Shown: positions 32,879 to 63,742, counted from the first letter of the stretch. The stretch: 64,000 bases of DNA from an uncultured Methanoregulaceae archaeon (GCA_963701095.1 OY969564.1:2432001-2496000), one strand, 5' to 3'. Notes: generated from the letters alone by a model not told the origin. Translations and numbers: made by a program.

Positions 32879-33352
32879 ATGGAAAAATTCCTTAAGGATT
32901 ATATTGATCGGATTCGGCCAAGCTTTAGCCGGATATCGGAAGAGACCGGACATGTTATCGCGTCTGCATTTTTTTCCTTCAAGTTTGAACTGTATCCAAA
33001 GACCCTCCGGGAATGCTCGACAGCTCTTTCGCTTGTTCCTGAAGGAAATGGCAGTTCAGCTTTGAAAACCGCTCTTTCGATTGTCCGGGAATATGCAGTA
33101 GCGTACGAAAACGCGCAGGTGAGGCCTGAATCTATTCCGTTTTTTGAAATATCCGATCAGCCGTACCTTGCGGTTAATCTTGCACCTGAGCTCATTGAGG
33201 ATCCACTGACTCTCGATCTCGATAACGCGCTCCTTCTTCTTTATGCCGTAGCAGCAATTACGTCACCGGACGATGAACAGGCCCTTGAAGAGCACCGGAA
33301 ATATCTGGTAAAAATACTTGATACCTACAAACGTGCGCTCGGAATGCTTTAG
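32879..33352 (+). CDS. hypothetical alpha-helical protein
   Basis: 157-aa ORF with an AAGGAG SD upstream. Confidence 0.75.
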   Translation: MEKFLKDYIDRIRPSFSRISEETGHVIASAFFSFKFELYPKTLRECSTALSLVPEGNGSSALKTALSIVREYAVAYENAQVRPESIPFFEISDQPYLAVNLAPELIEDPLTLDLDNALLLLYAVAAITSPDDEQALEEHRKYLVKILDTYKRALGML

Positions 33353-33478
33353 AATCGAAGATAGTGCCGGATTTTATATCCGGATATAATTTATCAATCA
33401 ATTGTATCTCTTTTGCCACATTAGTTCAAGACGTTCTCTGAGATCAGTGTATCGCCGCTGCGCAATTAAAAAAGTAAG

Positions 33479-34330
33479 TTAATATTTGTACCAGCGTCCC
33501 TTGCTGTCAAACTCTCCGGTGGATGGCTCTGCACCTGGCGTCGGGTTTTGGGTGATTGCCCTGTAGAAACAGGCTTTATAGGTCAGAAGAAGTGGCACCA
33601 GAACAAGGAGTGCAAGGAAAATAACTATGGCGGTTACCCACATTCCGTTGGTGCCGACAAGAGCGATAAGCTGCTGCGGTGTAACTGCGGCGATCTGCGT
33701 CTGGTTGTAGTGCGTGAGGGGTTCGAGTTTATCAAAAAGAAGTCCTTCCCAGATTATGGCAAACACAAAAAAATCAATAAACAAAATCAGGCAGCATATA
33801 ACATAGAATCCCAGTACTTCACCAGCGTGGCTGGCGACAACGCTGACACTGCGGCGCAGGGATTTAAAGACCTGAAGATCCTCAAACACTGCTGCCGTAT
33901 CGCAAAAGAAAGTTACAAACAGCGTAGGGATCATGACCAGAATTGCAAGCGAACCTGTGATCTCAAAATTGACAGAACCCCCGGATGAAATTGATGTAAC
34001 CATAGTGATTGTTACAAAAACGAGCAGGAGTACAAAGCAGATCACCAGCTCTGGAAGAAGTACACGGAAATAGTAACGGATGCCATCTTGTAGCATTACA
34101 CGTACATTGTTCTCTTTTTTCCTTATCAGGCTCAATGTACCAGCGACAAAAAAAATCATTGCAAGACAGGCAATGACGACGAGCTTGCTCGCAAAAAACA
34201 TTCCGGAGATATTTAAGAGGATCCAGAGCACCGCTCCTAATAATCCTGCAACCACGCCGGGTACCCACAGGATCGGAGCCTGTCGTATAGTACGGACCGC
34301 TTCACGCAACTCAATGAGGACCATGATCAT
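33479..34330 (-). CDS. multi-pass membrane protein of unknown function
   Basis: About 6 hydrophobic segments and a GEFDSKGRWYKY C-terminus; ATGA-coupled to the upstream gene. Confidence 0.78.
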   Translation of the reverse strand: MIMVLIELREAVRTIRQAPILWVPGVVAGLLGAVLWILLNISGMFFASKLVVIACLAMIFFVAGTLSLIRKKENNVRVMLQDGIRYYFRVLLPELVICFVLLLVFVTITMVTSISSGGSVNFEITGSLAILVMIPTLFVTFFCDTAAVFEDLQVFKSLRRSVSVVASHAGEVLGFYVICCLILFIDFFVFAIIWEGLLFDKLEPLTHYNQTQIAAVTPQQLIALVGTNGMWVTAIVIFLALLVLVPLLLTYKACFYRAITQNPTPGAEPSTGEFDSKGRWYKY

Positions 34331-54894: not shown

Positions 54895-56406
54895 TTACTC
54901 CCCCACGGACTTTACGTCAAGCACTTTGAGCAGACCCTCGTCCAGCATATAGCCACGGAGCCGGTCGCGGTTGCCCCGGAGACTCTCGATACTGTTGATG
55001 CCGGCGGCACCCATAAGTTCAGCGATTTCATCAGTCCACGCATGGATAAGGTTTGCAACCTGCACAGCATTTGTCTCGGGGTCCAGCCTCTTGGTGAGCT
55101 CCGGTCTCTGGGTGGCGATTCCCCAGGCACAGATGCCCCGGTTGCAGGTGCCGCAGACCCGGCATCCCATTGCGACAAGTGCTGATGTCCCTATATAAAC
55201 GGCGTCAGCGCCAAGGCAGATGATCTTTGCAATGTCAGCACTCTCCCTGATTCCGCCGCTTGCAATAATTGAAACCTCGTTTCGTATTCCTTGGGAGCGT
55301 AGCTTCGCATCGACACTTGCAATTGCTGCCTCAACAGGGATTCCCACATGGTCGCGGAAGACCCGGGGCGCTGCTCCCGTGCCTCCACGGAAGCCATCAA
55401 CGACAACCGCGTCTGCTCCTGAACGGGCGATACCGGCTGCAATCGCCGCAGAATTGTGAACCGCTGCAATTTTGACAAATACCGGTTTCTTCCATTCGGT
55501 CGCTTCCTTGAGGCTGTGCACCAGCTGTTTGAGATCCTCGATACTGTAAATATCGTGATGTGGGGCCGGGCTGATAGCGTCGCTTCCGCAAGGGATCATC
55601 CTCGTACAGGAAACCTCTTCGTCGACTTTTTCGCCCGGAAGGTGTCCGCCGATCCCCGGTTTTGCTCCCTGACCTATCTTGATCTCGATAGCGGCGCCGC
55701 GTTCAAGATAGTTTATATCAACCCCAAACCGGCCGGAAGCCACCTGCACAATTATATGACTCTGGTACGGGAAGAGCGACTCATGGAGACCTCCTTCACC
55801 TGTACCCATAAACGTTCCTACTTTTGTTACTGCTTTTGCAAGAGCAGTCTGGGCGTTCAGGCTGATCGCACCATAACTCATATGGCCAATCATGATCGGC
55901 GTCTCTATCTTGAGATTCGGGGCAAGTTTGGTAAGGAGATCCACGTCACCATTCGGGTACTCTTTTACGGACAGTGACGCAGGCTTCTTCCCAATATACG
56001 TCCTTAGCTCCATAGGCTCACGGAGCGGGTCAATCGAGGGGTTGGTCACCTGGCATGCATCAAGTACAAGCCGGTCAAAGATCATCGGGTAGGGAAGGAC
56101 ATTTCCCATACCGGCAAGGATAATTTTTCCTGTTTTTGCCTGGTTGAATACGGCTTCACGGATCTCACGGGTCCAGACCGGGTGGCTCCGGTAATCCGTG
56201 GGTTTCTCGTAGATCGCGATTGCATCACGCGGGCAGAACGCAGTACAGCGGTGACAGGCAACACAGTTCCGGGAATTTACAACGACCCGGTCGTTCTCTT
56301 TCCGGAAAACGCCGTACGAACAGTTCTCGATACAACGGCCGCAGTTCATGCAACGCTCGGTGTCCAGATCCACTTTGAACCTGAGCGGGATACTGCCGAT
56401 ACTCAT
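54895..56406 (-). CDS. glutamate synthase FMN-binding subunit with N-terminal 2x[4Fe-4S]
   Basis: CMNCGRC...C, CVACHRC...CP, MSYGAIS, TGEGG, QVASGRFG, KIGQGAKPG.GG.LPG.KV and CRVCGTC...C. Confidence 0.93.
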   Translation of the reverse strand: MSIGSIPLRFKVDLDTERCMNCGRCIENCSYGVFRKENDRVVVNSRNCVACHRCTAFCPRDAIAIYEKPTDYRSHPVWTREIREAVFNQAKTGKIILAGMGNVLPYPMIFDRLVLDACQVTNPSIDPLREPMELRTYIGKKPASLSVKEYPNGDVDLLTKLAPNLKIETPIMIGHMSYGAISLNAQTALAKAVTKVGTFMGTGEGGLHESLFPYQSHIIVQVASGRFGVDINYLERGAAIEIKIGQGAKPGIGGHLPGEKVDEEVSCTRMIPCGSDAISPAPHHDIYSIEDLKQLVHSLKEATEWKKPVFVKIAAVHNSAAIAAGIARSGADAVVVDGFRGGTGAAPRVFRDHVGIPVEAAIASVDAKLRSQGIRNEVSIIASGGIRESADIAKIICLGADAVYIGTSALVAMGCRVCGTCNRGICAWGIATQRPELTKRLDPETNAVQVANLIHAWTDEIAELMGAAGINSIESLRGNRDRLRGYMLDEGLLKVLDVKSVGE

Positions 56407-57453
56407 GCGATAACCCTCCCGATAACCGGTTCTCCGGCTTTTGGCATACTGACGTCCTCAATTGCCGGTTCGATTCTCCGGATCAGCTGCTTCTTCACTG
56501 GAGATGTAGAGCCGGTCGCCATGTTCACCTGCTACCAGAGGTCGTAGCTTAATCCGATCCGTAAACCCGAGCAACGTGTCAGATGTTGCCACACAGATTG
56601 CAAACGGGCCGTTCATAAGCGCCGGGCCATACGTTAGCCGAAGTGCCCTGTTGAGTTCCTGTTCTTTTGGTGGCATTTCGTCAATCTCATCCCAGAACGG
56701 TGGTGCCAGCGCACGTATTGCCAGTTTTTCCGAGAGACCGTGCTTCCTGACCAGTAAATCCACCAGGTACGCCACGACTTCAGTGTCAGTAAACATTGTG
56801 CACTTGTATCCGTCACTCTCGATATACCGCTGGTTGGTTCCGTACGAAGTGATTTCACCGTTATGAACGACACTCCAGTCAAGAAGGTTGAAGGGGTGTG
56901 CTCCTCCCCACCAGCCGGCAGTGTTCGTCGGGTACCTGTTGTGGGCAAGCCAAAGGTATCCTTTATAATCCTCAATCCGGTAGAAATTAGCGACCTGTTC
57001 AGGCCATCCCGAAGCCTTGAAGACGCCCATGTTCTTTCCCGATGAGAAGATAAGCGAACCTTTGTGTGTAGTATTTACCCGCATGACAAGCTCAGTGACC
57101 ATGTCGTCGGCTGTAGTCCGGGGCTCTTGTGCAAGACTTGTGTCAGGCAGATAGAAAAATCGCCATGGCGTGTGGACTTTTTTTATTCCCGCTTCGTAAG
57201 TCGGTATCGGTTCGTCATGGAAAATGGTACCCCATGATTCAAGTTCCTTGACGAGCGCCGGTTTGTCCTCTTTTACATCGTCAAAGAATACATGAAGGGC
57301 ATAGGCGTCCTTAAATTCAGGGTATATACCATAAGAAGCATAGCCGGCTCCCTCCCCGTTTCCCCGCTCGTTCATCATCGCGAGTGATGCTCGGATTTTA
57401 CTGCCGTCCATGAGATGGCGGCGTTTATCTATGACTCCAATAATTCCACACAT
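56403..57453 (-). CDS. glutamate synthase class II amidotransferase subunit, +1 indel near the 3' end
   Basis: MCGIIG, RG...G.G, HNRYPTNT, HPF, HNGE and DTEV. Removing one base at about 56484 restores SEEAAIRRI...KAGEPVIGRVIA* with an ATGA overlap. Confidence 0.92.
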
Positions 57454-57590
57454 TTTCTATCACAGTCGGGATGTCTGGTTAGCTTTTTGTTCCTTTGGGC
57501 TGGAAGCGCCGGTCGGAAATTGAAACGTATATTATTAGCACGTTCCCTGAATTGAATGTAATTATTCTCCTCAAAGGGTTAGTTCAGAAG

Positions 57591-57622
57591 ATATAAATGT
57601 AATTGGTTGGAAAATTAGTTCC
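57591..57622 (+). promoter_or_regulatory. glnA promoter: TATA box and NrpR-type operator
   Basis: ATATAAAT at 57591-57598; GGAA-AATTAG-TTCC at 57609-57622, 3 nt before the ATG. Confidence 0.8.
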
Positions 57623-57625
57623 ATT

Positions 57626-58951
57626 ATGTCAGCAGACGTGGCTAAGTTGCTCAAGAAAATTAATGCCGATGACGTAAAATTTATCCGGCTCCAGTTTACC
57701 GATGTGCTGGGGATGCCAAAGAATGCGGCCATCCCTGTTGTTCAGGCAGAGAAATCCCTGACTGAAGGCACATGGTTTGACGGGTCGTCCATTGAAGGAT
57801 TTACCCGGATCGAGGAGTCGGACATGCTTTTAAAAGCGGATCCGGCATCATATACAACTCTCCCATGGAGACCTCAGGAGGGCAGGGTCGCCCGGTTCAT
57901 GTGTGATGTGTATACCTATGGAAACAAACCCTTCGAAGGCGACCCCCGCTACGTTTTAAAGAAAGTTCTGGCTGATGCTGCAAAGATGGGCTACACATTT
58001 AACACCGGCCCCGAACTCGAATTTTTCCTGTTCAATCTTGTCAATGGCAAGCCAACGACAGAGTTCCCCGACCAGGGGGCATACTTTGATCTTTCTCCCA
58101 ATGACAAAGCAGAAGATGTCCGCCGAGAAATCGTGCTCTCGCTTACCAGCATGGGTTTTGAGATCGAGATGTCACACCACGAGGTGGCGGCAAGCCAGCA
58201 CGAGATCGATTTCAAATACGCGGATGCACTCACGACTGCAGATCGGGTAATGACCTATAAATTTGCAACAAAAGCAATTGCACTCAAATATGGCCTGCAT
58301 GCTTCGTTTATGGCAAAACCAATCGCCGGGATCAACGGCAGCGGAATGCACACGCACGGTTCCCTTTCAAAGAACGGCAAGAATGCTTTCTATGATGCAA
58401 ATGCCCCGGATGGACTTTCTGACACAGCGCTCTATTACATAGGCGGTCTTCTCAAGCATGCAAAGGCAATCACCCGGGTTGCAAACCCGACCATTAACTC
58501 GTACAAGCGGCTTGTTCCGGGATATGAAGCTCCCTGCTACATCTCGTGGAGTACTACCAACCGGTCAGCACTCATCCGTGTGCCGGCAGCCCGTGGTAAC
58601 AGCACCCGTGCTGAATTCCGTAGTCCGGATCCGATGTGCAATCCGTACCTTACGTTTGCCTGTATGCTTGCTGCAGGTCTTGACGGTGTGAAAAACAAGA
58701 TCATGCCCCCGGACGCAACAAACACCAATATCTACCACCTGAATGCAAAAGAGCGCAAGAAAATGAAGATTGATATGCTGCCGGGAAGCCTCACTGAGTC
58801 CCACCAGTACCTGCTCAGGGACCAGGTTCTTTGTGATGCTCTCGGCCCGCATGTTGTCGAAACCCTCACACGTATTACTGAAGCTGAGACCGACGCTTTC
58901 CGTCTCGCGGTTCACCCGTGGGAACTGGACCGGTACCTCGCTACCTACTAA
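57626..58951 (+). CDS. glnA: glutamine synthetase type I
   Basis: FDGSSIEGF...ESDM, GPELEFF, HHEVA..QHEI, FMAKP..G.NGSGMH, SYKRLVPGYEAP and EFRSPD. Confidence 0.97.
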   Translation: MSADVAKLLKKINADDVKFIRLQFTDVLGMPKNAAIPVVQAEKSLTEGTWFDGSSIEGFTRIEESDMLLKADPASYTTLPWRPQEGRVARFMCDVYTYGNKPFEGDPRYVLKKVLADAAKMGYTFNTGPELEFFLFNLVNGKPTTEFPDQGAYFDLSPNDKAEDVRREIVLSLTSMGFEIEMSHHEVAASQHEIDFKYADALTTADRVMTYKFATKAIALKYGLHASFMAKPIAGINGSGMHTHGSLSKNGKNAFYDANAPDGLSDTALYYIGGLLKHAKAITRVANPTINSYKRLVPGYEAPCYISWSTTNRSALIRVPAARGNSTRAEFRSPDPMCNPYLTFACMLAAGLDGVKNKIMPPDATNTNIYHLNAKERKKMKIDMLPGSLTESHQYLLRDQVLCDALGPHVVETLTRITEAETDAFRLAVHPWELDRYLATY

Positions 58952-58984
58952 TCTTACAATATTTTCCCGCAAGGTGAGGGACAG

Positions 58985-59152
58985 ACTGGACTTTTCATCC
59001 GGTAAATGCCCGTCGTCCATGTGGGTCCGGGAGAAGACAGAAAGGATACGCACAGGTTCGCTACGTTCCGTCCGGCATTTATTGCCGTACCGTGGCATTC
59101 CCTCCTACCCGTATAAATTCTGGTCTTCTTTTGGCTCATTCGTGGACTCACA
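58985..59152 (+). ncRNA. candidate structured cis-regulatory leader of amtB1
   Basis: Hairpin ACUGGA-CUUUUCA-UCCGGU and a long helix pairing 59020-59042 with 59119-59152. The motif is shared with the amtB2 leader. Confidence 0.4.
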
Positions 59153-59167
59153 ATAAAGTTACAGGAG

Positions 59168-60370
59168 ATGATTATGGCTCTGGATACCGGTGTTACAACT
59201 TGGCTCATGGTCTCGGCACTTCTGGTTATGCTGATGACCCCGGGCGTTGGGTTTTTTTATGGTGGACTTGTTCGAAAGAAGAATTTTATCTCGATGATCG
59301 CACTCTCTTTCCTGGTACTGGCGCTCACCAGCGTCCAGTGGATCATGATAGGGTATTCGCTTGCGTTCGGTTCAGACGTGGGAGGCTTTATCGGAAACCT
59401 TCAGTATCTTGGATTGAACGGCGTGAGTGCTACTGCTGGCACAGCAGCATATCCGCCGCTTGTCTACATGGCATTCCAGCTCTTCTTTGCCTCAGTCACG
59501 TTAACTATCGTTACGTCGGCTGTTGCAGAGAGGGTTAAACTGTCATCGTTTATTGTGTTCTCGCTCATCTGGTTGAGTGTAGTATACTGCCCGCTTGCAC
59601 ACTGGGCATGGGGCGGAGGCTGGGCACAACAGATGGGTCTTATTGATTTTGCCGGTGGCACCGTTGTCGAGATCTGTTCCGGTTTTGCCGCTCTTGCGCT
59701 CGCGCTGGTTATCGGCAAACGCGCCGGTTTTGGCGAATATTCGATAGAACCTCACAATATCCCGATTGCCCTTCTAGGTGCAGCCCTTCTCTGGTTTGGC
59801 TGGTTCGGGTTTAATGCCGGGAGTGCGCTTGCGGTTAACGGGAGCACGGTGACTGCATTTGTGAATACAAACACTGCTGCAGCCACCGGAGCACTTGCAT
59901 GGATGTTTGCCAGCTGGTACAATGGCAAACCCAGCTCCTTAGGTATGGTAAGTGGCGCGATTGCCGGAATGGTCGCAATCACACCTGCAGCCGGCTTTGT
60001 TACACCTCTTGTGGCAGTTCTTATTGGTGCCGTTGCAGGTGTACTCTGCTTTGGCATGATGCTCCTGAGAATCAGCAAACAGCTGGACGAAAGTCTGGAT
60101 GCATGGGCAATTCACGGGATGGGAGGAGTTTGGGGAACTCTAGCAACCGGCCTGTTTGCAGCAGCAGCAGTCGCCGGATTCTCCGGGCTCTTTGAAGGAA
60201 ATGTTCACCAGTTCCTGATAAATGCCCTGGGTGCAGGTGCCGCTGTCGTCTATGCCTTCGTAGTAACTTATGTTTTAGCGACTCTCATCGATCGCACTCT
60301 GGGATTGCGTGTCACACCTGACGAAGAATACGTCGGGCTTGACATTTGTCATCATGGTGAGAGGGCATAA
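59168..60370 (+). CDS. amtB: ammonium transporter (His-to-Glu pore variant)
   Basis: [39 protein letters not shown] and D...IHG. The start is 59168 or 59174. Confidence 0.95.
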   Translation: MIMALDTGVTTWLMVSALLVMLMTPGVGFFYGGLVRKKNFISMIALSFLVLALTSVQWIMIGYSLAFGSDVGGFIGNLQYLGLNGVSATAGTAAYPPLVYMAFQLFFASVTLTIVTSAVAERVKLSSFIVFSLIWLSVVYCPLAHWAWGGGWAQQMGLIDFAGGTVVEICSGFAALALALVIGKRAGFGEYSIEPHNIPIALLGAALLWFGWFGFNAGSALAVNGSTVTAFVNTNTAAATGALAWMFASWYNGKPSSLGMVSGAIAGMVAITPAAGFVTPLVAVLIGAVAGVLCFGMMLLRISKQLDESLDAWAIHGMGGVWGTLATGLFAAAAVAGFSGLFEGNVHQFLINALGAGAAVVYAFVVTYVLATLIDRTLGLRVTPDEEYVGLDICHHGERA

Positions 60371-60466
60371 CCTCTTTTCTTATTACCCTTTTTGAAATTA
60401 CATCCTTACAGGATCAATAACCGTTTTTCTTTCTCTCTCTCATTAATCAAAATATTAATATATCTA

Positions 60467-60480
60467 GGAATAGAACTTCC
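60467..60480 (+). promoter_or_regulatory. NrpR-type operator upstream of amtB2-glnK2
   Basis: GGAA-TAGAAC-TTCC directly after an AT-rich TATA-like stretch (60451-60463). Confidence 0.75.
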
Positions 60481-60498
60481 TTCCTATAAAACATGGTA

Positions 60499-60650
60499 CT
60501 TCATTAAGAGAGCCGATATCTCGCGGATAATCAGGCTGTGTGGGTGATACCGGACTTTTCATCCGGACCCTGTCTCCGGCAGCCTGATTCGTTTCCTGGT
60601 TCGGGAAAAAGATCCGCTGCTTTGCCGTCATTACGGTTCGCGGCATGAAG
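60499..60650 (+). ncRNA. candidate structured cis-regulatory leader of amtB2
   Basis: Nested helices CUUCAU/AUGAAG, GCGGAU/AUCCGC, AAUCAGGCUG/CAGCCUGAUU and CCGGA-CUUUUCA-UCCGG. Confidence 0.45.
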
Positions 60651-60676
60651 GGTCAGTTCAGTAAAAGGTGAATTAA

Positions 60677-62232
<1,556 letters not shown>

Positions 62233-62278
62233 AATAAATGGGTACTGATTCGGGATCCCGTCCCTTAAGTTCCAATTC

Positions 62279-62318
62279 GGGAAGGAGTTAATAATCGACT
62301 CTGCTTCCCTCTTTTTTT
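62279..62318 (+). terminator. hairpin plus T7 terminator after amtB2-glnK2
   Basis: GGGAAG.GAGT...ACTC..CTTCCC followed by TTTTTTT. Confidence 0.55.
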
Positions 62319-62533
62319 AATGATTCCACGTCTTTCGAGAAAACGGTGGAAATATATTTCTTATAATTCTATACTTAAAACGAATTCCCGGAATACTCTT
62401 GTTGGCTCTCTCGCATATTGTTATTTAGCCAGACGGTGAAAATCATAGGATATCTATCATGATCCCGTGGCTCAATTCTAATTTTAAAAATTTTAAACCT
62501 ACAGCGGCAATTGCTCTCAATGCCACGCGGCAC

Positions 62534-63742
62534 ATGAATACAATGGAACGTAAAAAACTTTTTTCCCCCGATATCGAGCCCATGCGAACTGCAGAAGGAC
62601 GATGGTTTGAGGCAATCGTATACGAAATGTTCCTTGAGATTTCACAGAAATCCGGCCAGATAAAATATCTCGCGCGTAAGGGTGCGGATGCACCACATGC
62701 CGGTGCCCAGGCTCATCTAGGCCAAAACGGTATTTTTTATTCTAAATATGGGGACATAACCTTCCGGGGAAACGGTCAGGACCTGGCTGAATTTGATCTT
62801 ATGCTTGTCGATTCTGAGAATCAGGTCGCGTTTGGCGAAGTGGTCACCTCGCCGGCAGATCTCAAGGAATTTGAAGTCGAGATCGCTTTTAAAAAACGGT
62901 TACTTGGGTATCTCTATGGCCAGAAGCATGTCTCGTTTGTTCTTGTATCCTCCTTTGACATCTCAAACTATTCTGTAGTTAAGCGGCTTGCAAAAGATCC
63001 GGATAACGCGATCATCCATACCAGTTCCTGCGAGCAGATCAAATCACTGGTTAAACATTACCGGCCCCGTATTCTGTACACAAAACCCACAAACCATCCC
63101 AAGTTGATCCGTGCCACCGATATTCCGCAGAAAAACCCGATCGATTACCGGAAATGCCACGATGAGTTCAGGAACCGTCTTTTCTCCGATATCAAGGACG
63201 GCCACCGGGACACAAAGGAACTGGCACCTTCTACAGATACCGAAGCACTGGTCAAGAAGATTCTCTATGGCGCCCTGTATCCCCACGCGATAAAGGCTGT
63301 CTGTGAACAGTACGGTCTTGTAGTCCGGGGAAAACGTGTCGAATGGGCTGATTTTTTCGGGTATTTCTCTAAAGCGATTCTCGCTACTGATCTCCCCGGC
63401 TTTGAGCTCATCCTGTATCTCCGGTCCCGGGAGAAGACGGAGTATCTTAAGATGGTGCAGACAAAGGAAGGCCACTTCCGGTTTGAACGCCCGACTCCCT
63501 CACGAGTAGGTTTTTTTCTGTGGATCGAGTCGCTCCAACCTTCGCTAGGGACCAGGATTTCTCTTGAAATCCTAAAAACATTCAGTACAAAGGAGCCGGG
63601 AAAAAATAAATCCGTGATTTTCTCAACCGACTTTTTTTTAACTGACGTATTCAACCCTTCAGCCAGACAGGTCAGAGAATGGGAGCGCCTGTTAGCAGGT
63701 AAATTATCAGCACAATCACGATCTGGTGCACGAGATAGATAA
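62534..63742 (+). CDS. hypothetical protein with N-terminal PD-(D/E)XK restriction-endonuclease-like motifs
   Basis: GRWFE, AEFDLMLVD and FGEVVT. The start is uncertain (62459, 62534 or 62543). The true end is probably about 63609 if the A6 run lost a base. Confidence 0.55.
   Translation: MNTMERKKLFSPDIEPMRTAEGRWFEAIVYEMFLEISQKSGQIKYLARKGADAPHAGAQAHLGQNGIFYSKYGDITFRGNGQDLAEFDLMLVDSENQVAFGEVVTSPADLKEFEVEIAFKKRLLGYLYGQKHVSFVLVSSFDISNYSVVKRLAKDPDNAIIHTSSCEQIKSLVKHYRPRILYTKPTNHPKLIRATDIPQKNPIDYRKCHDEFRNRLFSDIKDGHRDTKELAPSTDTEALVKKILYGALYPHAIKAVCEQYGLVVRGKRVEWADFFGYFSKAILATDLPGFELILYLRSREKTEYLKMVQTKEGHFRFERPTPSRVGFFLWIESLQPSLGTRISLEILKTFSTKEPGKNKSVIFSTDFFLTDVFNPSARQVREWERLLAGKLSAQSRSGARDR

Follow-up and report, generated by a model that had tools for sequence, protein, structure and literature searches.

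The nitrogen-assimilation cluster

The window analysed here is a stretch of 64,000 nucleotides (nt) of DNA from an uncultured Methanoregulaceae archaeon (GCA_963701095.1, OY969564.1:2432001-2496000), and all positions are counted from its first letter. Its end is occupied by a nitrogen-assimilation cluster in which glnA, amtB1, amtB2 and glnK all lie on the plus strand. The subject of this report is a small hairpin that stands ahead of each of the two amtB genes, which encode ammonium transporters. It is a real, sharply defined and lineage-restricted element that is not in Rfam and, within the searched literature, not in print. The genes and promoters around it are the following.

57590-57599, plus strand: TATA-like box of the glnA promoter, read in the sequence
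57609-57622, plus strand: GGAAAATTAGTTCC, NrpR-type operator (GGAA-N6-TTCC) of glnA, placed after the TATA-like box and ending 4 nt 5′ of the glnA ATG
57626-58951, plus strand: glnA, glutamine synthetase (Pfam Gln-synt_C, 7.9e-132; Gln-synt_N, 2.3e-30), upstream of hairpin 1
59174-60370, plus strand: amtB1, ammonium transporter (Pfam Ammonium_transp, 5.9e-127; NCBIfam TIGR00836, 2.4e-134)
60450-60480, plus strand: amtB2 promoter, consisting of the TATA-like AAATATTAATATAT (60450-60463) and the NrpR-type operator GGAATAGAACTTCC (60467-60480)
60677-61888, plus strand: amtB2, ammonium transporter (Pfam Ammonium_transp, 6.3e-132; TIGR00836, 3e-140)
61894-62232, plus strand: glnK (PII), directly 3′ of amtB2 (Pfam P-II, 3.4e-29)

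The open reading frame (ORF) of amtB1 opens at the ATG at 59168; the second ATG, at 59174, agrees with the starts in relatives. The amtB2 promoter block is kept in close relatives, and the genome holds two genes with an NrpR domain (PF01995). Since the operator of glnA ends so close to its ATG, the glnA mRNA should be leaderless or nearly so; the amtB leaders, by contrast, are 190-230 nt long. The operator consensus given for NrpR in PMC2723118 is GGAAN6TTCC.

A hairpin shared by both amtB leaders

The leaders of amtB1 and amtB2 have diverged from each other outside a shared core. The initial annotation of the window had pointed to an exact 15-mer common to both, and GGACTTTTCATCCGG is indeed present at 58988-59002 and 60552-60566, one copy ahead of each paralog. 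These are the only two exact copies on both strands of the 2,625,686-base genome, and the genome-wide repeat that the annotation had named as a refuting observation was thus not found. With their flanking bases, the cores read CTGGACTTTTCATCCGG (58986-59002) and CCGGACTTTTCATCCGG (60550-60566). The structures that can be drawn around them are listed below.

58986-59002, plus strand: hairpin 1 core, CUGGA-CUUUUCA-UCCGG, folding alone into a stem of 5 base pairs (bp) and the 7-nt loop CUUUUCA at -3.3 kcal/mol
58976-59014, plus strand: extended hairpin 1, in the glnA-amtB1 spacer, with the outer helix GAGGG(A)CA/UGCCC(G)UC, an internal loop (5′ G, 3′ AAA) and the apical stem-loop
59026-59030 and 59071-59075, plus strand: extra UCCGG copies 3′ of hairpin 1
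60550-60566, plus strand: hairpin 2 core, CCGGA-CUUUUCA-UCCGG, folding alone into a 5-bp stem and the 7-nt loop CUUUUCA at -5.5 kcal/mol
60529-60589, plus strand: extended hairpin 2, in which a perfect 10-bp outer helix (60529-60538/60580-60589) surrounds inner helices and the apical stem-loop
60563-60579, plus strand: alternative hairpin B, CCGGA-CCCUGUC-UCCGG, the second CCGGA-N7-TCCGG of leader 2

Most of what had been proposed for these folds was borne out. The stem is 5 bp in both, the loops are identical, and the C/U difference in the flank keeps pairing, as C-G in one leader and as U-G in the other. The perfect 10-bp helix of leader 2 encloses hairpin 2. The crossing helices proposed for leader 1 correspond to crossing inverted repeats at 59003-59015/59069-59081 and 59032-59038/59123-59129. 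The additional UGCCG...GGCA hairpins proposed downstream can be found in both sequences; for leader 2, close relatives have a hairpin of another sequence at the corresponding place. The whole leaders fold modestly better than shuffled sequences (z = -2.3 and -2.4), while the 65-nt domain at 60527-60591 reaches -29.4 kcal/mol (z = -3.9), with none of 200 shuffles as good.

Hairpins 2 and B are mutually exclusive, as both use the middle CCGG; the leader has three CCGG sites in regular 13-nt steps. Among the relatives, G105 has an exact hairpin B, and G114, G088 and G103 have a partial one; it is not general in the genus.

A strict version of the pattern had only four matches in the genome: the two amtB leaders, the anticodon arm of tRNA-Leu(UAG) and a hairpin at window position 33367. 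The last of these, CCGGATTTTATATCCGG (33367-33383), lies between the convergent ORFs 32879-33352 (plus strand) and 33479-34330 (minus strand). Its stem and the start of its loop are those of the amtB hairpin, but its context is that of gene 3′ ends, and it is probably an unrelated terminator-region hairpin. In the amtB leaders themselves, no U run follows the stem, as the Y-A is succeeded by mixed sequence (UAAAUGCCC and ACCCUGUC), and the form of an intrinsic terminator is therefore lacking. A cmscan of 57000-63000 on both strands, with E values up to 10, returned no Rfam match to either core but only three chance-level, unrelated matches elsewhere; the view that this is not the glnA glutamine riboswitch thus holds.

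Conservation among relatives

The first search used the pattern with at most one mismatch over 61 relatives, with the reversed pattern as control, and gave 28 matches versus 1. Nineteen of these lie within the genus, 90-206 nt 5′ of an amtB start. The other nine were treated as chance, having no glnA, amtB or glnK nearby and, in most cases, overlapping long open frames.

The bias of a motif search is removed by a gene-first sample, in which amtB was found by protein (it is present in 103 of the 108 genomes of the genus) and which comprises 105 leaders from 61 genomes. The core is present in 80 of them, 77 recognized by the core regular expression and three by eye as variants (two with CCGGACUUUCUUCCCGG, one with an 8-nt loop). 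At least one core-bearing amtB leader occurs in 54 of the 61 genomes.

Counts per paralog were made over 124 leaders, i.e., the gene-first sample plus the 19 found through the motif. All 35 amtB1-type leaders carry the core, nine of the 35 having been found through the motif itself. Among the 73 amtB2-type leaders, 64 carry it and one more has a degenerate form; the remaining eight belong to a distinct sub-clade without it. A third amtB paralog, absent from the present genome, has the core in none of 16 leaders. The leaders of this third paralog have a conserved layout of their own, in the order TATA box, GGAA-N6-TTCC, TTTTATGTAGTA and a hairpin of the form CCCGUGUGGUGACGGG with an SD-like (Shine–Dalgarno-like) GGUGA in its loop, which looks like a separate leader element in the same gene family.

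Outside the genus, 29 amtB leaders from 23 genomes were inspected, 15 of these genomes representing eight other genera of the family and eight representing five other families. They have TATA boxes and GGAA-N6-TTCC-like sites, and the hairpin was not present in any of them, except in one genome of a sister genus, where it stands ahead of both amtB genes. A covariance-model search over 151 genomes of the order agrees with this distribution: amtB-linked matches occur only in the genus and in the sister genus. In a search of the present genome, model R1 gives hairpin 2 a score of 36.9 bits (E = 3.6e-7). Of 27 other model loci that were inspected (21 outside the genus, five weaker ones in the present genome and one other, g1), only the sister-genus locus G133 adjoins amtB; the rest have irregular loops and no amtB, glnA or glnK within 1.5 kb, and were set aside. 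Realigning 69 matches to the model changed almost nothing. The element is not described in the literature, as far as full-text searches reached.

Many relatives have two further conserved blocks in their amtB2-type leaders, (A/T)TTAAGA(A/G)C and CAATGCA, which lie 3′ of the hairpin and 5′ of the SD, at about 45 and about 30 nt from the ATG. They are absent from the clade of the present genome, and may represent RNA elements or a second promoter closer to the gene.

The conserved core

From 96 cores the consensus CCGGA / YUUNNNA / UCCGG, followed by YA, was obtained. The inner three pairs of the stem are kept in 95-96 of the 96 cores (GGA in 95-96, UCC in 96), including the closing A-U pair, which is present in all. 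More variation is seen in the second pair (C-G 74, U·G 13, C·C 7, others 2) and in the outermost pair (C-G 72, U·G 16, U-A 3, C·A 3, A·G 2). In the loop, the first position is a pyrimidine and the second and third are U in every core, and the last is A in 87. The middle three positions are free, e.g., position 6 is C in 43, A in 27, T in 25 and G in one, and 22 different loops occur. The loops of the two hairpins of one genome often differ, as with CTTAAAA and CTTGTAA in G094. The loop is nevertheless fixed in length, being 7 nt in 96 of 97 clear cases and 8 nt in one. On the 3′ side of the stem, a pyrimidine follows in 84 of the 96 cores, and an A at the second position in 86.

Parts of the core recur downstream. 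Of 60 leader clusters, 24 have TCCGG within 90 nt 3′ of the core (3.3 expected) and 11 have CCGGA 3′ of it (3.5 expected). In the leaders of five relatives, the CCGG duplex is reused in the opposite orientation by another small hairpin, UCCGG-N2-3-UCCGGA, which follows the core at a distance of about 30-40 nt, and the clade of the present genome has a CGGGA-GAAUGA-UCCCG-like hairpin at a similar place. A general switch built from hairpin B and the tandem UCCGG-N3-UCCGGA hairpins was considered and rejected, as these occur in some clades only.

A covarying outer helix

The sequence around the core is not conserved, yet it is complementary. In the usual form of the amtB2-type leaders, the core is separated from an outer helix by an internal loop of about 3 nt (5′ strand) and 1 nt (3′ strand), examples of the helix being GAGCUCAAU/AUUGAGCUU, CGCCAGU/AUUGGUG and GGCACGAU/AUUGUGCU. 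In the amtB1-type leaders the bulge is on the opposite (3′) side and consists of the 3 nt UAA; here too the helices vary by clade while remaining complementary, as in CGGG(A)CAG/CUGCCCG, GG(U)UCAG/CUGACC, and AGGU/ACUU plus UCGGCA/UGUCGA.

Two tests indicate that the outer helix is real. When the 3′ flanks were exchanged among 60 sequence clusters, the native flanks folded better than the swapped ones (-16.96 versus -13.70 kcal/mol, Wilcoxon p = 1e-5) and formed more enclosing pairs (11.3 versus 8.05, Wilcoxon p = 3e-7). In addition, double changes in the outer helix were counted over 61 amtB2-type sequences in a fixed register: 73 cells showed them, compared to 40.2 ± 5.7 in shuffles, with none of 500 shuffles as high, and six slid controls were all lower. 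The outer helix thus shows the helix covariation that is expected of a structured cis-regulatory RNA. The apical stem, 98% paired, is uninformative on covariation because it is invariant. With this conservation and covariation, the initial proposal of a structured element common to both amtB leaders stands.

Position in the predicted transcript

The initial annotation had also placed the element in a layer upon NrpR control, which agrees with the arrangement found. The core of hairpin 2 begins 69 nt past the end of the operator and 127 nt 5′ of the amtB2 ATG. TATA and GGAA-N6-TTCC precede the hairpin in 60 of 61 amtB2-type leaders, 56 of them with an exact GGAA-N6-TTCC, and in these 60 leaders 10-88 nt (median about 75) separate the operator end from the core, whose start lies 90-147 nt 5′ of the ATG. 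Such variable placement suggests an RNA module. As for the amtB1-type leaders, 33 of 35 have no operator-like site of their own in up to 420 nt upstream of the start.

Transcript evidence was sought in contigs from five RNA-library runs, of which small shares (0.05) were used; the span 60408-60541 is uncovered and therefore uninformative. Contigs from four runs in four studies, about 90% like the window, span glnA, hairpin 1 and amtB1, and one contig extends from hairpin 2 into amtB2. The position of the promoters implies that the hairpin would be transcribed as part of the amtB leader; these metatranscriptome contigs are weak evidence of this and no proof of transcription. Downstream of the glnA stop codon, 15-25 nt 5′ of hairpin 1, most relatives have a run of 5-8 T that could be an archaeal termination signal; the present genome (58949-58990) has only TTTT there.

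RNA element or DNA operator

The element could in principle be a palindrome in DNA. A dimeric transcription factor would then bind the 17-bp CCGGA-N7-TCCGG at both places, past the amtB2 promoter as well as in the glnA-amtB1 spacer, and by blocking or modulating RNA polymerase would add to NrpR a second control linked to nitrogen. The boxes of TnrA and GlnR at the Bacillus nrgAB/amtB promoters are palindromes of just this 5-N7-5 form, and the amtB core likewise consists of two nearly invariant half-sites at a fixed spacing. A DNA-binding protein would also explain why the arms are invariant in sequence without internal compensatory change, why four of the seven spacer positions vary freely within a fixed length, and why the sole double change (TCGGA...TCCGA, in three leaders) preserves the palindrome. 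The further CCGG-containing half-sites downstream, including those in 13-nt steps in leader 2, fit such a view as well.

However, conservation is not symmetric about the dyad. The two loop U residues present in all 96 cores (T7/T8 of the 17-mer) have A at their mirror positions in only 27 and 8 cores, and nothing on the 5′ side mirrors the 3′ YA. The outer two pairs of the stem are U·G in 29 cases and C·A in 4. The same bias is seen in outer helices that are well formed and were chosen on Watson-Crick pairs alone, where the remaining cells are G·U in 37 cases and A·C in 16; in the fixed register over all 61 sequences, the numbers (48 and 40) are uninformative. Moreover, the unconserved flanks stay complementary and covary, for which a protein-bound duplex has no need, and the distance to the TATA box and operator is variable. 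CCGGA-N7-TCCGG is not in genome-wide excess (18 sites, compared to 21-22 for N5, N6, N8 and N9), and any regulon would consist of amtB alone. Nor is the core an NrpR operator: its spacing is GGA-N7-TCC and not the GGA-N8-TCC contained in GGAA-N6-TTCC, it is not at the TATA box or the start, and the true operators are separate from it, at 57609-57622 and 60467-60480. One-sided conservation and covarying flanks together speak more for an RNA, read in the direction of amtB, than for a symmetric operator in DNA, as far as sequence comparison can tell, and the operator is regarded as unlikely, though it deserves to be kept in view.

A leader hairpin proposed to be read by a trans-acting factor

The helix sequence itself, and not mere pairing, is kept while the surroundings drift, which makes sequence-specific recognition of the folded hairpin the most likely explanation. 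The preferred interpretation, held at about even confidence, is that of a cis-regulatory leader hairpin that is read sequence-specifically by a trans-acting factor, probably a protein, and that adjusts amtB translation or stability beyond NrpR. The step from a conserved structured element on the amtB strand to a protein-bound regulator is one that we infer, and so is the direction of its effect. For amtB2, the hairpin would be located about 65-85 nt into a long 5′ untranslated region (UTR) that starts at the TATA box with its NrpR-type operator; for amtB1, it would be located between glnA and amtB1 on a joint transcript. The factor that docks on the folded hairpin would most probably be an RNA-binding protein; it would determine how well the amtB message is translated or how long it lasts, as a second level of control above repression by NrpR. 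The extra UCCGG copies downstream may offer further contacts, or may be competing partners for the 5′ arm.

A number of observations weigh against this interpretation. No compensatory change was found inside the 5-bp stem, with the exception of the outermost pair, which goes from C-G to U-A in three leaders, and the invariance of the stem fits a DNA half-site equally well. The fold of extended hairpin 1 (-12.3 kcal/mol) is by itself unremarkable (z = -0.5). In about one third of the clusters, the flanks are no more complementary than the swapped controls, and in the fixed register only 59% of the outer-helix cells of the 61 amtB2-type sequences pair. All p-values overstate the case, as the relatives are not independent. 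The RNA-library contigs come from relatives, may contain DNA, and are without strand or 5′ ends. The opposite strand even folds slightly better (-18.55 versus -16.96 kcal/mol), the plus strand being better in 19 of 60 clusters; loop and dangling-end terms differ between the strands, so that folding energy gives no strand call, and this was not accepted as evidence of an antisense RNA. Finally, no candidate binding protein was identified.

In the neighbourhood of the cluster, the remaining genes are the following.

54895-56406 and 56458-57453, minus strand: two glutamate-synthase-like genes
62459-63742, plus strand: orf427, 3′ of glnK, without Pfam or NCBIfam match

The product of orf427 is a core conserved protein whose family is unassigned by Pfam and NCBIfam; homologues occur in 145 of 151 genomes of the order, with E values down to 1e-100 and below, and relatives align over approximately residues 1-380 only. 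It was considered as a lineage-specific partner of the hairpin and rejected, since a gene that is near-universal in the order does not track the distribution of the hairpin.

Accounts of nitrogen control in methanogens deal almost wholly with the repressor NrpR, with PII proteins and with a few small RNAs, the last in Methanosarcina, and to our knowledge cis-acting regulatory RNAs have very seldom been described in archaea. Against this background, a compact hairpin that measures about 40-65 nt, stands in the leaders of both amtB paralogs in roughly a hundred species of a wetland methanogen genus and is located 3′ of intact NrpR-type promoters suggests that ammonium uptake is controlled at a second level, after transcription. 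As the element is restricted to one lineage, its reach is limited.

Other explanations at the RNA level

Besides recognition by a regulatory protein, the hairpin could serve as a processing or stability site, being cleaved or protected by a ribonuclease (e.g., one of the type that acts on anticodon loops) or blocking 5′-3′ decay. It would in this way set the lifetime of the amtB part of a transcript and uncouple amtB1 from glnA. Such a site would share the RNA features described above, and several known RNases cut anticodon-arm shapes. The hairpin also lies just after glnA, where differential operon stability would act, in amtB1-type leaders that nearly all lack an operator-like site of their own. 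On the other hand, a simple protective hairpin needs no invariant stem sequence, and in the amtB2 leaders the element is internal and not 5′-terminal. Inspection of the fold did not reveal a bulge-helix-bulge either: instead of two 3-nt bulges around a 4-bp helix, there is a 5-bp helix with unequal bulges, which are not the same in the two leader types, and, on the distal side, a 7-nt loop. A processing or stability site is therefore considered improbable.

Contact with another RNA would be a third way to use such a hairpin. Many antisense systems use a YUNN-type loop start on a stable stem, and the U-turn-type loop of the amtB hairpin might pair either with a small RNA or elsewhere in the leader, e.g., with the SD region, as the initial annotation had suggested. 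Nitrogen-responsive small RNAs are known in Methanosarcina. But the conserved part of the element is the stem, which is not free to pair, whereas the middle of the loop is free and often differs between the two hairpins of one genome. The pairing proposed with the SD region did not withstand comparison: over the 60 clusters, the loop pairs no better with its own translation-start region than with that of other species (-3.25 versus -3.13 kcal/mol, p = 0.74), and the same holds for the rest of the leader (-3.98 versus -3.78 kcal/mol, p = 0.53). Loop-leader matches that do exist in two clades (CUUAUCA with GAUAA; UUUAUCU with AGAUAA) did not generalize. Contact with another RNA is very unlikely.

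A small riboswitch that binds glutamine, 2-oxoglutarate or ammonium directly is just as improbable. It has in its favour the long structured leaders and the mutually exclusive hairpins (here 2 and B) of some species, and a position upstream of nitrogen genes like that of the glnA RNA motif (PMC2864571). On the other hand, no Rfam family matches, the conserved unpaired bases are few (YUU, the last loop A and the 3′ YA), neither a junction nor a conserved pseudoknot is present, and hairpin B is confined to a few close relatives. The internal loop also differs between the leader types, its 3 nt being 5′ in amtB2-type and 3′ in amtB1-type leaders. A riboswitch-like ligand pocket is thus not supported by the conserved positions.

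Comparison with known systems

Some known regulatory elements of nitrogen genes resemble the amtB hairpin in part. Like the glnA RNA motif (RF01739) and the Downstream-peptide motif, it would be a cis RNA upstream of nitrogen genes. The glnA RNA motif precedes nitrogen genes including those for ammonium transporters and PII in cyanobacteria and marine bacteria, as described in PMC2864571. That motif is sometimes found in tandem and has a ligand-binding fold with an E-loop and a pseudoknot, whereas the amtB element is a single capped hairpin without Rfam match in two methanogen genera. With the NrpR operator, as described in PMC2723118, it shares an inverted repeat with GGA/TCC cores at nitrogen-regulated genes. 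It differs from this operator in its spacing (GGA-N7-TCC) and in the bases that flank it, in its location 10-88 nt 3′ of the real operator, in its asymmetry and in its covarying flanks.

The iron-responsive element (IRE) offers a likeness in design. It is also a short 5′ UTR hairpin with an invariant apical sequence and a variable lower stem, which occurs in several mRNAs of one nutrient pathway. The amtB hairpin has no sequence or structural homology to it and is carried by amtB genes alone.

A closer likeness, already noted in the initial annotation and more literal than had been expected, is that to the anticodon arm of a tRNA. The hairpin has a 5-bp stem and a 7-nt loop, with a pyrimidine at position 32 and U at position 33 in all 96 cores and A at position 38 in 87; a purine at position 37, as in an anticodon arm, is present in only 28. 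Several tRNAs of the same genome have nearly identical arms: CCGGA-UUUAGGG-UCCGG in tRNA-Leu(UAG), CAGGA-CUUUGGA-UCCGG in tRNA-Gln(UUG) and CUGGA-CUUAAGA-UCCAG in tRNA-Leu(UAA). In 401 genomes of the phylum, the 19-nt consensus CCGGAYUUNNNAUCCGGYA had 23 matches, and its reversed control none. Six of the matches are amtB leaders and 16 are one identical string in another family, which in the four cases checked (4/4) is the anticodon arm of tRNA-Leu(UAA). The core is thus, by its pattern, built according to the grammar of a tRNA anticodon arm, and the likeness is confined to the hairpin. ARAGORN found no tRNA gene in 57000-62500, and a blastn-short comparison of the leaders with the 48 tRNAs of the genome gave only chance matches of 7-11 nt. 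A tRNA-gene remnant or an integration scar was consequently rejected, as there is no similarity beyond the hairpin. No particular tRNA is copied, because positions 35-36 are free and position 37 is so seldom a purine. Compared to the arms of tRNA-Leu(UAA) and tRNA-Leu(UAG), the latter of which has the same CCGGA/UCCGG stem in this very genome, the amtB element is part of a longer helix and not of a cloverleaf.

A close parallel in form is found in Escherichia coli, where the thrS operator, a hairpin in the mRNA leader, imitates the anticodon arm of tRNA-Thr and is bound by ThrRS. Both are leader hairpins of anticodon-arm geometry, and the one of thrS is read by a tRNA-binding protein and controls the translation downstream of it. 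The amtB hairpin differs in that the middle three positions of its loop, 35 and 36 among them, are free, its gene encodes a transporter and not a synthetase, and its host is an archaeon. It is conceivable, at low probability, that the hairpin is a true mimic, on which a protein would dock whose usual targets are tRNA anticodon arms with U33/U34; this reader may be an enzyme that modifies the wobble uridine or the loop, or a factor connected with glutamine-dependent tRNA chemistry. If so, the synthesis of ammonium transporters would be coupled to tRNA or glutamine status, and tRNA-reading proteins would be linked to nutrient transport. The amtB hairpin would then be an archaeal counterpart of the thrS operator, serving a nutrient transporter and lacking a fixed anticodon.

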